Of a stretch of DNA of 64,000 nt, positions 4,514-63,519 are shown piece by piece (the first letter of the stretch is position 1; every line of letters begins with the position of its first letter). The stretch lies in assembly GCA_964016885.1 (NCBI GenBank), contig OZ024743.1, positions 306,342,001 to 306,406,000 on the forward strand, given 5' to 3'. Source of the DNA: Eledone cirrhosa (lineage: Eukaryota). The position numbers were made by a program, and so were the translations under genes. The notes under the pieces are model-generated. The model saw nothing but the letters and a program-made list of their open reading frames with translations, was not told the origin of the DNA and ran no database searches.

Positions 4514-4888
4514 TATAAACGTTTGTATATGTATAATAAAGCCAAAACAATGCAGGTATAGACATAGAATAAAGAATGCAAATGCAAAAGATATTGTTGA
4601 CAATTAGTCTTTTACCTTAGATTTATTTAAATCTCCTTAATTTTCGAGATAATATCTCTTCTTCAGAGGGAAGTAAAGCGGTTAAACCAGTGTTCTAAAT
4701 AGCTTAGAACACTGGTTTAACCGCTTTACTTGCCTCCGAAGAAGAGATATTATCTCGAAAATTAAGAACATTTAAATAAATCTAAGGTAAAAGACTAATT
4801 GTCAACAATATCTTTTGCATTTGTATTCTTTATTTTATGTCCATACCTGCATTGTTTTGGATTTATTATACATATACAAACGTTTATA
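4514..4888. mobile_element. Fold-back element with about 185-bp arms, 5-nt loop and an HHR-like motif in each arm
   Basis: Arms are reverse complements around 4701. Minus strand 4633-4672 reads CTGAAGAA-GAGAT-ATT-ATCTC-GAAA; the right arm has the CCGAAGA variant. Flanked by (TA)n. Confidence 0.85.
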
Positions 4889-5470: not shown

Positions 5471-5875
5471 TAATAATAATATATATGCAGTAAGAAACAC
5501 AGTAAACCGTGTGTCTAATATTACAAGGGTTGAAAAACCACATTTGTTTGAAATATTTAACCAAGAAGCAGACAGAATGATAAAATAAAATTATATTATA
5601 CAAACCGCCTCAATAACAATTACATCTCTCGGACAGATTATCCCTAATCTGTTTCGCCCTGAGTGTGTTTGCAACAGGTAATCCATGGGAATCATCAGCG
5701 AGAGAATCTGATTAAATGCGACAAACACTATGTACCAACGTTCACACAGAAAGATGAATTTATTTTATCATTCTGTCTGCTTCTTGGTTAAATATTTCAA
5801 ACAAATGTGGTTTTTCAACCCTTGTAATATTAGACACACGGTTTACTGTGTTTCTTACTGCATATATATTATTAT

Positions 5876-5877
<2 letters not shown>
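5471..5877. mobile_element. Fold-back element with about 120-bp arms (5471-5592 / 5757-5877) enclosing a hammerhead ribozyme
   Basis: Near-perfect inverted repeat, echoed by mirror-image ORFs in the track. Right arm abuts (TA)n. Confidence 0.9.
5625..5705 (-). ncRNA. Type I hammerhead ribozyme, canonical core
   Basis: Minus strand: TCTCTCG-CTGATGA-TTCCC...GGGC-GAAA-CAGATTA-GGGA-TAATCTG-TC-CGAGAGA. Stem I 7 bp, long stem III, GUC cleavage triplet. Confidence 0.9.
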
Positions 5878-8992: not shown

Positions 8993-9424
8993 TACTTGAA
9001 ATATTTAACTAACCCTTAGTACAACATTTGCAGAATTCTAAGGATCCGAGAAACCCAAATTAAGAACCGGTGACGTAGAGATTCATAAGAAGGGTGTGTG
9101 GATAATGAGTGAAGAGCTAATAAAAAATCGCTCGCCCTGAGTTCGATCCGGATTACAGCCAAATCACTTCTCTTAGGCTATGGTAACCAATAAATTAGAA
9201 AAATATTTGAATGTCGTTAGGCAATCTCTCTCTTGTTGGTCTCTTTTATAATGTCTGACGTCTGATGCTTCATTAAAAGATCGATATCGAACTATGGCTG
9301 ACACCATAATTCAGTAGTTAGTCACAATCTTAGGGAAAGTTGCCAGTTGTACTGAAACGCACTGACTTATGAAATCAGACGTTTAACTTTATGTGTGTGT
9401 ATGTATGGATATATATAGATATAT

Positions 9425-9472
<48 letters not shown>

Positions 9473-53239: not shown

Positions 53240-53555
53240 GATATTAATAAATGGAAACTATATTTATAAAACCATATTTATTTCATTATACATATTTCAG
53301 GGATACCAAATTAAATTATGGTATGCCTTCATCAGACAAAATACAATATATAACAGTTTTTGGAAGTCATCCGGATATCCGGATGACTTTCAAAAACAAT
53401 GGTTGCATTTTAATAAGTTACGTCAAAGCATAATTGTAAAACTGTTATATATTGTATTTTGTCTGATGAAGGCATACCATAATTTAATTTGGTATCCCTG
53501 AAATATGTATAATGAAATAAATATGGTTTTATAAATATAGTTTCCATTTATTAAT

Positions 53556-53558
<3 letters not shown>
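53240..53558. mobile_element. Fold-back element, family D (about 120-bp arms, HHR in each)
   Basis: HHR at 53456-53518 (+): CTGATGA-AGGCATACCA...TGGTATCCCT-GAAA, mirror at 53280-53342 (-). Spacer holds the palindrome AAGTCATCCGGATATCCGGATGACTT. Confidence 0.9.
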
Positions 53559-53689: not shown

Positions 53690-54067
53690 ATATTGTTATA
53701 CTTTGGGAGGGTCATGTTGCCAATAAGAAACACACGCACCAGTAGCTTTCACTTCAATTTATTATATATTTATAAATTTATAAATTTACAAATCTACAAA
53801 CCTATAAATTTCTGGTTGGTTGGTTGGTTCCACAACCAGATAGTTGTTTATATATATAGTCATAGTCCTTTCGTCACTGAAGAGGTCACAGAGTGTTTGA
53901 CGAAAGGACTATGACTATATATATAAACAACTATCTGGTTGTGGAACCAACCAACCAACCAGAAATTTATAGGTTTGTAGATTTGTAAATTATAAATATA
54001 TAATAAATTGAAGTGAAAGCAACTGGTGCGTGTGTTTCTTATTGGCAACATGACCCTCCCAAAGTAT

Positions 54068-54075
<8 letters not shown>
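53690..54075. mobile_element. Fold-back element with an HHR at the fold point
   Basis: About 180-bp arms. 53873-53915 (+): GTCA-CTGAAGA-G-GTCA...TGAC-GAAA-GGAC-TA-TGAC. Confidence 0.88.
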
Positions 54076-55394: not shown

Positions 55395-55887
55395 TATAAA
55401 GAAAAAGAGATGAAATCGAAAATGCAACTGAAGTCTTATTTTTTTTTTAAATATATATATTTATTTGGTTCCTTTACCGGTTTCGCAGTTCTTCTGCTTG
55501 TCAAAAGGTGAGTTGAGATGGAGGGTCTGTGGTTTTTCTCACATCTGGTTGGTATATTTCGTAGAAGAAAACTGAACAAGCGACCATCAATAGTAGGAGA
55601 CAAATTCTGGGTTTAGTCCCCTGTAGCATGGCTTATTTATATTAAATAAGCCATGCTACAGGGGACTAAACCCAGAATTTGTCTCCTACTATTGATGGTC
55701 GCTTGTTCAGTTTTCTTCTACGAAATATACCAACCAGATGTGAGAAAAACCACAGACCCTCCATCTCAACTCACCTTTTGAAAAGCAGAAGAACTGCGAA
55801 ACCGGTAAAGGAACCAAATAAATATATATATTTTTTAAAAAAATAAGACTTCAGTTGCATTTTCGATTTCATCTCTTTTTCTTTATA
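55395..55887. mobile_element. Near-perfect fold-back (about 245-bp arms, 3-nt loop) with U3:A8-variant HHRs
   Basis: Centre at 55641. 55774-55811 (+): CCTT-TTGAAAA-GCAG-AAGAA-CTGC-GAAAC-CG-GTA-AAGG; mirror at 55471-55508 has TTGACAA. Confidence 0.9.
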
Positions 55888-56002
55888 TATATATATATAT
55901 ATATATAACGAAGGAAATGTGGCAAGGAACCAGATGGACCATAACGCACCAAAGTACTCAATACTTAGGGTAGTAGAGTGGGTAATATGAACAAGTAGTA
56001 TG

Positions 56003-56098
56003 AACCCGACGACAGAGCTCAAGCTGTATCGACGGCTAATTCTGGACTAAATAAGAATTTTTAGCCTGGTAAATAAATAGCCGAACTTCTCAGGGGGT
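56003..56098 (-). ncRNA. Decayed hammerhead motif, same family as 59386-59481
   Basis: Minus strand: ACCCC-CTGAGAA-GTTCGGCTA...TAGCCGTC-GATA-CAGC...GTC-GGGTT. Confidence 0.55.
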
Positions 56099-57254
56099 AA
56101 TTCCTTATATGGGAAGATAGTATTTGTCAAAAGGATTGGTCAAAAATTTGTTGTAAAGACAGATGATTCTATCATGACATTTGGTTGGAGGTAGGGGTAG
56201 CTGAACTTGCCAGTAGAACAAAGAGGGAGTGGGGGAAACCCAGTCAAGCGTTGAAAGGGAAATCTATAGAGCAGATTCTAAGGATAGTGTTTAGAAGGTC
56301 GAAAAAAGTGTACTGGAGAAGGGGAGGGGGAGGGGTAAGTTGAAAGAATAGGTAAATCGAAAGGGAGTAAACAAAAAACCATTATAAAAATAAGGAAATA
56401 AATATATAAAACACAATTTCTGGCTACTACTCCATCTCCACAATCACCAAATCTCTCATTGGTATTGCTAAGCTATAGAAAAGTTTAATAGGTGGAGAAA
56501 AATACTAAATACGAGATTGTAGTGAAAGAATTTTATAAAGCCGGCTTTACAGGGGGTCTAACACCACTGCTATAGTTAGTTAGTAATCAGCCAATGCTAT
56601 CTTACAATGACAGGTTAATAAGTTGAGAAGAAAAATACTAAAATACTACTACAAAAATACTAATACAAAGTATTAATTCAGAATACTAATACAGAAATAC
56701 TAATACAAGAATACTAATACAAAAATACCACCAAGAAATTTAGAAATCACAGAAATGGAGCAGCAACCAGAAAGAAAACAATTTACTGGGGTCTAACACA
56801 TCTGCTATAAAAAGCGTAATCGGCCAATTCTATCTTAAAATTAGTGGGGGTGGGGGTACTGAGGCTACAGAGGACCGATGGGCTGCATCGGGATAGGCGA
56901 AAAGGTGAAAAAAAGACAAGGAAGGAGATCTGGAGTGGAAGGACTAGGAAGAGATAGGGGAAGAAGGAAATATAGAGGAAAGGATAAAAAAGTTACGTCT
57001 ACCTTTGTAAGCAGGGGTTACCCCTTACAAAATGGGCAAGTGGGGTGTTTCAGTCTTGCAGTCACAAGCGGTTAATCCTATATAAGCTTTGTTGGAGGTG
57101 TCCGTCCTCACGTTGCACTGGTAGGGATATGTATATATATATTTGAAAAAAAAGGAAAAGAATGACTTCACTTGTAGTTCTAAATAATTTTAGTTCTAAT
57201 ATATATATATATATTATTTGTTCGCTAAAATAATAAAATTAAATTAACTCAGCA

Positions 57255-58179: not shown

Positions 58180-58490
58180 TACTATAAGGATAAAGAACAA
58201 GGATTCAGTGTTGCATCATGACATATTTAATAACATATTACATATGTTTCACTATCGATCAGCTCGAGGCAAGACCTATTATAGATCGAACCTGACTCTG
58301 TAATCGAAAGGTCGTCAGATGTACTTAGAATATGAATTCGTACTAAGCATATCTGACGACCTTTCGATTACAGAGTCAGGTTCGATCTATAATAGAACTT
58401 GCCTCGAGTTGATCGATAGTGAAACATATGTAATATGTTATTAAATATGTTATGAAGCAACACTGAATGCTTGTTCCTTATTCTAGTATA
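58180..58490. mobile_element. Fold-back element with an HHR in each arm
   Basis: 58348-58437 (+): CATAT-CTGACGA-CCTTTCGATT...GATCGATAGT-GAAAC-ATAT-GTA-ATATG; mirror at 58234-58322. Confidence 0.9.
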
Positions 58491-58782: not shown

Positions 58783-59077
58783 ATAACAAAATAAGATGGT
58801 GAGGTTACATATATCGTTTAATCATAATAATTATTTCCACGGTTCTCCATGCAATCGAGAGGTATGTGCGCCCAACATACATATTATGTATGCTGGGCGC
58901 ACAGGCATTAGGATGTGTGTTTTCCTGCCAGCGATATATCAAATATATCGATTTTCATCTGAGGAAACCGTTCTCATAATCAACAGCAAATGCATTAAAG
59001 ACATCTCGATTGCATGGAGAACCGTGGAAATAATTATTATGATTAAACGATATATGTAACCTCAGCATCTTATTTTG

Positions 59078-59081
<4 letters not shown>
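58783..59081. mobile_element. Fold-back element (about 80-bp arms) with an HHR spanning spacer and right arm
   Basis: 58955-59042 (+): TCAT-CTGAGGA-AACCGTTCTC...GAGAACCGTG-GAAA-TAATTA-TT-ATGA. Spacer also contains the hairpin TGTGCGCCCAACATACATA/TATGTATGCTGGGCGCACA. Confidence 0.85.
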
Positions 59082-59375: not shown

Positions 59376-59385
59376 AAAAAGTATG

Positions 59386-59481
59386 ACCGCGACGGCAGAG
59401 TTCAAGCCGTTTCGACGGCTATTTTTGGACTAAATTAGAATTTTTAGCCTGGTAAATAAATAGCCGAACTTGTCAAGGGGC
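59386..59481 (-). ncRNA. Type I hammerhead motif, U3:A8 variant, GUC site
   Basis: Minus strand: GCCCC-TTGACAA-GTTCGGCTATTT...AAATAGCCGTC-GAAA-CGGC-TTGAACTCT-GCCG-TC-GCGGT. A 3' fragment of the same family is at about 63462-63512. Confidence 0.75.
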
Positions 59482-59703
59482 ACTTCCTTATATGGGAAGA
59501 TTGTAGTTGTCGGGTATTTTAATTTTAATCTTGCTTTGATCTTTGATTCTGTTTTAATGTAATTTTGATTTTGAATTTAAATTGCCATTCAGAAATAATA
59601 TAATATAATATATGTCACCCCACTGTACATCAATATATACATATGTATATGTATGTCTCTTGCGTTGGAAAGGAGGTCAAGTATGTGTACAAACATTGAA
59701 TAA

Positions 59704-59950: not shown

Positions 59951-60009
<59 letters not shown>

Positions 60010-60047
60010 TAAATATACACGGGTGTGTATGATTGTGTATAGAAGAT

Positions 60048-61627
60048 TATATTAATAAGAGGAATTCAAACTTTGTCTGATTTACTCGTTTTATTTACAA
60101 TCCTTTAAAATATATATAATATGGTATTATAATGAAATAGTATGATAGAATATTAAATTCTAAGTGTTAATTGAACAAGTACTTTCATGCTTTCGCAATC
60201 TTCAGGTTCATGATATGTGGTGACAGTCGAGTTTGCAATTTTCAACTGTAATGAGATGGGTAAATTTACTACCTTTTATACATTTTATACAGAGAAAAGT
60301 GGCTCCAGAATGCAAAGCTCTGTAAACTGTATTTCGACCAATCAGTGTGTAGTTTCACTGAATTACTACAGCTGATTGGTTTAAGAGTCACGGCTGGTTG
60401 AGCATGCTAACGACCAATAGTCATACCCAACGTATCAATTGTTTTGCTTTTTGAAATGACAACTTAGAACAACCCAAGGAAGAAGAAACCAAGAACTGGT
60501 CATACCATTTATAATGACACACAACCCATGTCACCAGAATATATTCAACACTGCCAAAGCAAACCTACCGATCATTGCTCAAAGTAATGAATTAAAAGGC
60601 TTAATCACAGATCGATCTTTGACTCTTAGTAAAAGACAGCCAAAAAATTTGAAGCAATTACTAACAAAAGCAAAGTTTGACCTTAACAACAAAGACCAAT
60701 CATTCACTGTATCTAAATGCAATGATAATCGATGCGGCACATGTCAATCCATACACGCCGGTCAATATATGAAAACAAAAACTGGAAAAATATTCCCAAA
60801 TGCAAATATGAACTGCAAAAGCAGAAATCTAATTTACTGCATTAAATGCCCGAATTGTGAAGAACTATATGTCGGTCAAACTGGAAATGCACTATCGGAA
60901 CGTGCACGGGTACACCGTCAACAAATCAGAGACCCAAATGTCCGTCAGATACCCCTAAGCGGCCACCTGGCAACATGTGGTCAGGGAATATTTATAATAT
61001 TCCCATTCTATAAATTACACAGCCCAAGTGAAATCAAGAGAAATATCAAAGAAAAGAATTTTATTGATAAATTCAAACCCAAGCTAAATGAACAATAATA
61101 ACGCCTAGGGGTATTACTTCTACTACCACTATGACCACGACCACTAACAACAACAACAACAACAATAATAATAATAATAAAAGTGATGTTGATGGTGATG
61201 ATTAATAGAAAATGCTATTTTCATCATTTCAAAAAGCAAAACAATTGATACGTTGGGTATGACTATTGGTCGTTAGCATGCTCAACCAGCCGTGACTCTT
61301 AAACCAATCAGCTGTAGTAATTCAGTGAAACTACACACTGATTGGTCGAAATACAGTTTACAGGGCTTTGCATTCTGGAGCCACTTTTCTCTGTATAAAA
61401 TGTATAAAAGGTAGTAAATTTACCCATCTCATTACAGTTGAAAATTGCAAACTCGACTGTCACCACATATCATGAACCTGAAGATTGCGAAAGCATGAAA
61501 GTACTTGTTCAATTAACACTTAGAATTTAATATTCTATAATACTATTTCATTATAATACCATATTATATATATTTTAAAGGAGTGTAAATAAAACGAGTA
61601 AATCAGACAAAGTTGGAATTCCTCTTA

Positions 61628-61633
<6 letters not shown>
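60048..61633 (+). mobile_element. PLE-derived element: about 410-bp inverted repeats (60048-60459 / 61224-61633) with HHRs, flanking a GIY-YIG frame
   Basis: Arms are near-identical reverse complements. HHR at 61473-61511 (+): TGAAC-CTGAAGA-TTGC-GAAA-GCAT-GAAA-GTAC-TT-GTTCA; mirror at 60172-60210. (TA)n on both sides. Confidence 0.92.
60460..61098 (+). CDS. GIY-YIG endonuclease domain of a Penelope-like element (Neptune-like), 5'-truncated, no RT; first ATG at 60514
   Basis: VIPFIMTHNP thumb/linker remnant, KRQPKNLKQLL, CNDNRCGTC Cys linker, NLIYCIKCPNCEELYVGQT, RARVHR, E...I...KPKLN. The frame is open back to the inverted-repeat junction. Confidence 0.88.
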   Translation, partial: QLRTTQGRRNQELVIPFIMTHNPCHQNIFNTAKANLPIIAQSNELKGLITDRSLTLSKRQPKNLKQLLTKAKFDLNNKDQSFTVSKCNDNRCGTCQSIHAGQYMKTKTGKIFPNANMNCKSRNLIYCIKCPNCEELYVGQTGNALSERARVHRQQIRDPNVRQIPLSGHLATCGQGIFIIFPFYKLHSPSEIKRNIKEKNFIDKFKPKLNEQ

Positions 61634-61706
<73 letters not shown>

Positions 61707-62831: not shown

Positions 62832-62904
62832 AAGCAAATTATAAATGTAAACATGTAAGTATGTTTCAAAAACATAGTTACATGTTTACATTTATAATTT
62901 GCTT
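62832..62904. repeat. Short fold-back abutting (TA)n
   Basis: AAGCAAATTATAAATGTAAACATGTAA / TTACATGTTTACATTTATAATTTGCTT. Confidence 0.85.
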
Positions 62905-63122: not shown

Positions 63123-63324
63123 TATCAATGATATTAATAAATGGAAACTATATTTATAAAACCATATTTATTAAGATCTCGTTCCTGGATATGTCAATAT
63201 TTATAAAACAAACTTCGTATTTTATCTGATGAGAGCGTACCAAAGTTTTGGTACCCTTGAAATATATATAATAGAATAAGTATGGTTTTATAAATATAGT
63301 TTCCATTTATTAATATCATTGATA
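63123..63324. mobile_element. Fold-back element, family D (about 50-bp arms, single HHR)
   Basis: HHR at 63219-63277 (+): ATTTTAT-CTGATGA-GAGCGTACCAAA-GT-TTTGGTACCCTT-GAAA-TATATAT-A-ATAGAAT. The extension 63325-63415 matches those of the 15.1-kb and 53.2-kb copies. Confidence 0.9.
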
Positions 63325-63413: not shown

Positions 63414-63465
<52 letters not shown>

Positions 63466-63519
63466 TAGCCGTCGAAACGGTTTGAGGTCAGCCGTCGAGT
63501 CCTACTCGTTCCTATATAT

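Follow-up and report, generated by a model that had tools for sequence, protein, structure and literature searches.

A nuclease frame between inverted repeats in Eledone cirrhosa as a very probable truncated insertion of a Neptune-type Penelope-like element

Introduction

Is a lone GIY-YIG nuclease frame between near-perfect inverted repeats a mobile unit of its own, or the remnant of a larger retroelement? The question is raised by a locus of Eledone cirrhosa at positions 59955-61704 of the window, the 64,000-nt stretch of DNA analysed here, to which all plain coordinates refer. A preliminary description of the locus had offered as its simplest reading a young 5'-truncated Penelope-like element (PLE) with an inverted pLTR, and as an alternative a discrete endonuclease-only unit resembling a TIR transposon.

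Results

Anatomy of the locus

The locus lies between two (TA)n target tracts, 59955-60007 on the left and 61636-61704 on the right, so that the (TA)n noted outside the arms is present on both sides. Over 412 nt, the arm at 60048-60459 is the reverse complement of the one at 61224-61635 except for 4 mismatches, in agreement with the near-identical arms of about 410 bp reported earlier. Relative positions are counted from the predicted ribozyme cut at 61506/61507, taken as 0. On this scale the left arm (minus strand) runs from +128 to -283 and is an inverted 5'-truncated second copy made of the pLTR and part of the 3' UTR. The right arm (plus strand) is the 3' UTR and pLTR of the longer copy, and its short (+128) end reads ..CTTATTAAT before the TA run. 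Outside the left arm lie 40 extra element bases (60008-60047, minus strand) that are absent from the right arm. This one-sided tail, 40-41 nt of 5' UTR past the short end, defines the long end class; it terminates with ..TTTACC at the TA run and contains a small AC-loop hairpin by folding.

The two copies meet head-to-head at 60459-60460 with one shared base (A), a junction that occurs once in the genome. From there the last 212 codons of ORF2 extend over 60460-61098 (plus strand), followed by the unshared part of the 3' UTR (61099-61223, plus strand), which holds an (AAC)n/(AAT)n run. The window copy thus comprises the last 1,176 nt of its source element in sense and the last 452 nt in antisense.

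A hand-written motif scan of the whole 64,000-nt window located the minimal hammerhead core CTGAAGA-ttgc-GAAA, with a 5-bp stem I and a 2-bp stem III, at 61478 on the plus strand and at 60205 on the minus strand. The corresponding minimal type I motifs occupy 61473-61511 (plus) and 60172-60210 (minus), one in each arm as first described, while Rfam returned no match over the window at gathering scores, hammerhead included. The label 'HHR' for both arms is accordingly a motif assignment, read together with the literature on minimal PLE hammerheads.

The nuclease frame

The frame at 60460-61098 is open for 212 codons, stop to stop, and covers the end of a helical thumb-side region, a Cys linker and a GIY-YIG domain. 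The linker, CNDNRCGTC at frame residues 87-95 (60718-60744, plus strand), is of the form CX4CxxC (C87, C92, C95) with Neptune-type spacing to the next Cys. The endonuclease domain at 60829-61089 (plus strand) is recognized by Pfam (GIY-YIG, E 1.3e-6, frame residues 124-210), carries LIY..YVG and has the CCHH residues together with R148, H152, E198 and N210. No RT was found in the window, where tblastn with an intact ORF2 matches only 60493-61095. An uninterrupted PLE-type GIY-YIG frame with a Cys linker and no RT, as originally reported, is therefore what the locus holds.

The attribution of an own in-frame start codon to this frame did not hold. The ATG at 60514-60516 encodes an internal Met within IPFIMTHNP, and the frame already starts 18 codons before it, precisely at the junction. 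Among 118 aligned homologs of at least 600 aa, none of the 117 rows with a residue in this column has Met. The functional residues are strongly conserved: each linker Cys is kept in 116 of 117 homologs, C130, C133, H152 and H169 (CCHH) in 114-115 of the 114-115 aligned, and the R, H, E and N residues of GIY-YIG are nearly invariant.

The parent element and its classification

Tandem copies at one locus (L052) define a 4,202-nt unit consisting of a pLTR with hammerhead, 5' UTR, ORF1, ORF2 and 3' UTR. ORF1 encodes 449 aa, for which Pfam gave nothing at curated cut-offs; ORF2 has 775 codons, overlaps ORF1 in the -1 frame and contains RT, Cys linker and GIY-YIG, the window frame being its residues 564-775. 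Two copies with both ORFs open lie head-to-head at L055, and their ORF2 matches Pfam RVT_1 (E 2.9e-6, just under the curated cut-off) as well as GIY-YIG. These two full-length copies (L055:393-9162) meet through a small palindrome at the predicted ribozyme cut, and comparison of their arms over 3,778 sites shows 2 differences. The heptamer TTTTTTA in the ORF1/ORF2 overlap (L055:6252-6258) is preserved in all 18 matches, a count in which some loci appear twice, and judged by its sequence is likely a -1 frameshift site; the fold downstream of it is weak (-5.7 kcal/mol).

The family is abundant, with 5,173 exact genome matches to the hammerhead 37-mer, and in the first 100 of these the spacing of opposite-strand pairs ranges from 91 to about 4,000 nt. 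ORF2 has 506 homologs at E <= 1e-20, and the named ones among the 120 matches listed come mostly from bivalves or bivalve-associated samples. Five close RT-EN homologs (P0006, P0010, P0070, P0092 and P0116) are named as bivalve gill symbionts; they are probably host DNA within symbiont assemblies. A PDB sequence search with ORF2 gave two weak, irrelevant matches (E 0.1 and 0.58).

Domain order and linker spacing place the source, a young and abundant PLE, as Neptune-type. As in EN+ PLEs, RT and GIY-YIG are joined in one polyprotein (ORF2 of L055), CCHH is present with two Cys between GIY and YIG, and the pLTR carries a minimal type I hammerhead motif; the family also has pLTRs, tandem and inverted 5'-truncated insertions and a one-sided tail (the 4,202-nt tandem of L052 and the 35 pairs described below). 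The C-terminal EN and the CX2-5CxxC linker are Neptune traits. The linker is of full length: by visual comparison with rows in the supplement of PMC8557442, its 23 aa between CxxC and the Cys that follows match the Neptune rows consulted there (25 and 27 aa in Neptune-1_Ac and Neptune1_Nv) and not three Nematis rows (<10). The Neptune-clade EN+ PLEs of PMC8557442, so far as its relevant passages go, share with the window family the order of RT, CX2-5CxxC linker and C-terminal GIY-YIG with CCHH, and also DKG, the pLTR hammerhead, (TA)n targets and tandem plus inverted insertions. Other clades were rejected. Naiad and Chlamys have an N-terminal EN, DKA and no canonical hammerhead, whereas here the EN is C-terminal, DKG is found and the hammerhead is present. 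By the definitions in those passages of PMC8557442, Penelope and Poseidon lack the CX2-5CxxC linker and Hydra lacks CCHH, both of which are present here. A literature search covering few subscription journals found no published name for the family.

The junction and the endonuclease-only reading

A 28-mer spanning the junction has a single match in the 3.0-Gb genome with up to two mismatches allowed, so the dispersed copies sharing it that the preliminary description had proposed to look for did not appear. When the whole 1,623-nt unit was used as query, the window alone matched end to end among the best 40 of 2,270 candidates, each of the 39 other long matches beginning at query position 450 or 452; this sample is biased to long copies, and a junction-sharing copy would have ranked first. 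In all 29 other copies fetched, the same upstream sequence continues in frame towards the RT, with YLDD within 1.5 kb upstream in 23. The 32-mer just after the ATG has 812 genome matches, against 760 for an RT active-site 32-mer (one mismatch allowed), so that there is no amplified RT-less class. Of 40 regions, taken mostly in the order of the listing and covering 46 of the 100 listed matches to the ATG 32-mer, 32 extend unbroken to the RT active site, 8 stop short at -992 to -1415, and none stops at -1048.

Some of the 5' truncation points nearly coincide, those of L003, L078 and L108 falling at -1411 to -1415 and those of L076 and L087 at -1221 and -1222. The upstream partners differ where seen, and the points are possibly RT pause sites.

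That the locus is a discrete endonuclease-only unit, mobile as such (TIR-like or as a non-autonomous PLE derivative) or supplying nicking in trans, is hardly credible. The frame is open and retains every conserved Cys, His and catalytic residue, an in-frame ATG lies upstream of the linker, and the inverted ends are near-perfect, all of which would suit such a unit. But an open frame is the family norm, the 212 codons being open in 23 of 29 other fetched copies, and the family is young (40 segments diverge from the per-site majority by a median of 0.7%), so openness needs no selection. The window copy differs from the per-site majority at 6 of 1,177 sites. Three of these changes lie in the frame, too few for dN/dS; the sole private one, at 61044, is non-synonymous (K to N), and the two lineage-shared ones are synonymous. 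Both promoters inferred in the window point outward, away from the frame, the fragment appears to lack a sense promoter of its own and likely would not be expressed, and intact copies already provide the enzyme in cis. RT-less fragments arise at many other breakpoints, and the matches at the ATG and at the RT are similarly numerous. Dispersed copies with the same ends and the same internal junction, by which a discrete or TIR-type unit would be known, were not found, 0 of 40 regions ending at -1048, and an amplified unit is refuted by the unique junction. TIR DNA transposons and free-standing homing endonuclease genes resemble the locus only in look, as a single nuclease-like frame between inverted repeats; unlike TIR transposons the window unit has no transposase and no dispersed same-ended copies, and its repeats are retro-copied pLTRs. 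The simplest reading of the preliminary description, a young 5'-truncated PLE, is the one that its unique junction, the low divergence and the continuation of other copies into the RT bear out. That description had itself named a unique junction, with relatives extending into RT at variable truncation points, as the outcome that speaks against a discrete unit, and this is the outcome observed.

Survey of paired insertions

The survey comprised 81 loci (L032-L111 and L001), 20 of which had been picked as opposite-strand hammerhead pairs regardless of their ends. All element ends that were scored map to either of two TA-like sites, at +128 and about +169, beyond which the sequence runs into simple repeat in nearly all cases; ends with more than three changes in the anchor are missed by this scoring. 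Outward-facing pairs combine one long and one short end in 35 of 35 cases (p 6e-11 against even odds), a count that leaves out L053 and L111, where short ends abut tail-to-tail in another configuration. Unpaired ends are divided into 26 long and 24 short. In the 34 pairs measured (one was skipped), the tailed arm is the longer in 11, the shorter in 9 and equal in 14; in the window the tail sits on the shorter arm. Junction overlaps of 1-13 nt occur in 18 of 34 pairs, 1 nt in the window, and the remaining 16 have none or contain inserted or rearranged sequence.

Alleles were compared in 16 young pairs that passed a 96% identity filter, of 20 tried. Rare alleles carried by both arms of a pair occur at 0.153% of 15,053 sites, compared with 0.0075% for random cross-locus pairs (about 20-fold), and differences between the two arms at family-polymorphic sites amount to 0.047%, against 0.232% in random pairs. 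Both measures point to the same source locus for the two arms of a pair. In the window, both arms carry T at 61297, which among 38 other copies only L002 has, alongside 4 private-site differences. Across the young pairs the arms disagree at 7 family-polymorphic sites, and at L036 the multi-base variants of one arm are not those of the other. A search for chimeric pairs, which would indicate an origin from two RNAs, turned up only L036 and a few sites.

The ribozyme and the 5' ends of the RNA

In L032-L071, 42 of 71 hammerhead-bearing arms start at -75 to -61, and in contigs from four public runs joints pile up at 61434-61440. These arm starts and joints suggest transcription from about -73; the interval from -75 to -61 corresponds in the window to 61432-61446 (plus strand). 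Given such a start site, the many short fold-backs would be two run-off cDNAs.

Raw pattern matches for a 5' end at the ribozyme cut show no excess, with 33 against 30 at -5. After point changes are separated out, 24 of the 33 at the predicted cut are true junctions, against 4 of the 30 at -5. At a +4 control, which lies inside a palindrome and has a similar junction load, junctions were found in 14 of 30 examined, of 67 matches. The 5' ends thus step near the cut without a resolved one-base peak, which is suggestive of hammerhead cleavage in vivo; RT stalling at stem I is a possible cause as well. The activity that minimal hammerheads have in vivo, and their role there, are described as unknown in a passage of PMC7761336.

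At L120/L121 (about 1501-2346), L115 and L123, the base that directly follows the predicted cut is fused precisely to internal coding sequence, and L120 contains repeats of an 845-nt unit. Such joints would fit cleaved RNA that served for template jumps or was made circular.

Discussion

We consider the locus almost certain to be a truncated PLE insertion. In full, it is very probably one 5'-truncated insertion of a young Neptune-type PLE, composed of two tail-end copies joined head-to-head at a unique junction, and likely dead on arrival. A single insertion event is what we infer, no target-site duplication being readable inside (TA)n. The RT-EN protein of an intact copy would nick both strands of a (TA)n tract, after which each target 3' end would anneal to one of two TA-like sites (+128 and +169, separated by 41 nt) within the RNA's 5' UTR/pLTR portion. 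Both cDNAs would be extended towards the RNA 5' end, with early stops at -1048 and -283, and their 3' ends would be joined via one base of microhomology and then filled in. One stop would by chance have fallen between RT and endonuclease, which would give the locus its 'endonuclease-only' look. The two cDNAs would share their source locus and, in the simplest case, a single RNA, with the trailing RT displacing the first cDNA.

Priming from both target strands appears probable: the 35 mixed pairs, together with a tailed arm that is about equally often longer or shorter, favour two cDNAs primed in this way. The strict rule of one long and one short end would follow most simply from one RNA whose two priming sites are each used once. 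Even so, a single RNA in place of two sibling RNAs can be put forward with slightly less than even confidence, as a strict one-RNA model does not predict the 7 differences at polymorphic sites or the multi-base variants of L036, and allele sharing through later gene conversion or from two sibling RNAs also fits.

Priming on both strands might instead involve two RNAs held by an asymmetric RT-EN dimer, each subunit being forced to a different start site. A dimer is predicted for the Poseidon protein in the part of PMC11167929 concerned, and a few pairs do differ at polymorphic sites, but the 35 mixed pairs would require the asymmetry to be built in, and the arms are so much more alike than random copies that both RNAs would nearly always have to come from one source locus; we regard this as rather unlikely. 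Much less probable is a snap-back, in which one cDNA folds onto itself and copies its own pLTR into the inverted arm. Self-priming is discussed for PLEs in a section of PMC3846280 and would account for shared rare alleles and junction microhomology. However, the right arm, which would have to be the template, lacks 40 nt that the left arm has; of the 20 pairs with unequal arms, 9 have the tail on the shorter one; and an extra step would be needed to strip the longer arm of its tail. More improbable still are two unconnected insertions into one TA tract, a rearrangement at a later stage or an artefact of assembly. The TA tracts in the window have been hit repeatedly, inverted repeats trouble assemblers, and no listed public-run contig spans the stretch, but the junction has no TA bases, the arms have a rare allele in common while 4 private sites set them apart, and the same architecture with its strict tail rule recurs in 35 pairs.

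For the family as a whole we tentatively propose, at rather less than even confidence, that integration proceeds by priming of both (TA)n strands on one RNA at TA-like sites 41 nt apart, leaving each two-armed insertion with one tailed and one untailed end. The RNA would have two kinds of 5' end, one made by hammerhead cutting in vivo and one at the start 73 nt upstream, and cDNAs would run off at both. Against TA pairing, Poseidon primes in vitro at sites not homologous to the target, according to a part of PMC11167929. No published one-RNA, two-site model was found in the literature search, in which most subscription journals were not covered. A passage of PMC8557442 names the origin of tandem and inverted structures and the microsatellite bias as open questions.

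Similar insertions have been described. Passages of PMC8557442 report 5' truncation, an adjacent inverted truncated copy and a 30-40-nt tail that is often confined to one end, and link (TA)n targets to the Cys linker; a part of PMC3846280 reports an inverted truncated partner with a one-sided tail in rotifers, for example Pen2a_Av. The window insertion shares with these the 5'-truncated copy, the inverted 5'-truncated partner and the tail at one end only. The passages of both sources call the tail 'often' or 'optionally' one-sided, whereas here it is so in 35 of 35 pairs, and unlike the insertions described there the window truncation happens to spare the whole endonuclease. The Poseidon of Anolis carolinensis nicks and extends both strands in vitro and has two RT start sites bounding the tail, as a part of PMC11167929 relates. 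The window family is alike in these bounding start sites and in an AC-rich stem-loop near them. Poseidon belongs to another clade and has a single ORF; the start sites described for it are not homologous to the target, whereas both in the window family are TA-like, and according to PMC11167929 no reads ending at its ribozyme cut were seen, whereas genomic 5' ends of the window family gather there. A two-ORF Neptune of killifish appears in a passage of PMC12602865.

In L1 twin priming, two target 3' ends prime on the RNA, and cDNAs joined by microhomology give an inversion. The model proposed here is alike in its two target-primed cDNAs and their microhomology joint. The L1 cDNAs copy different parts of the RNA, whereas here both would copy the same pLTR, resulting in an inverted duplication.

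The window contains further fold-backs that are unrelated in sequence to this family, at 55399-55883, 4518-4884, 53694-54071, 58187-58484, 53240-53558, 5471-5877, 58786-59078, 62832-62904 and 63126-63321. All nine show the same one-sided pattern, in which one outer end has additional non-repeat sequence and the opposite one a TA run, and they are likely stubs of other PLE families. Two of them enclose hammerhead-like cores with longer stems, at 53877 (plus) and 5698 (minus). Another dispersed repeat family adjoins TA runs at 55997-56128, 59380-59511 and 63465-63515, with 89% between two copies, and similar sequence flanks L039 and L074. A short match at 9390-9456 to the TA-rich end of the family unit is probably simple-repeat similarity only.

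The locus is thus an ordinary truncated two-armed insertion of a Neptune-type PLE, and the family-level counts outweigh the cassette in interest. The cassette illustrates how chance truncation of a PLE can mimic a nuclease-only transposon, and a single junction search filters out such loci. The family is young, includes intact copies and counts its RT-bearing members by the hundreds; with a strict one-tail rule and start sites that are defined, it would offer sharp predictions for an in vitro assay of a Neptune-type element.
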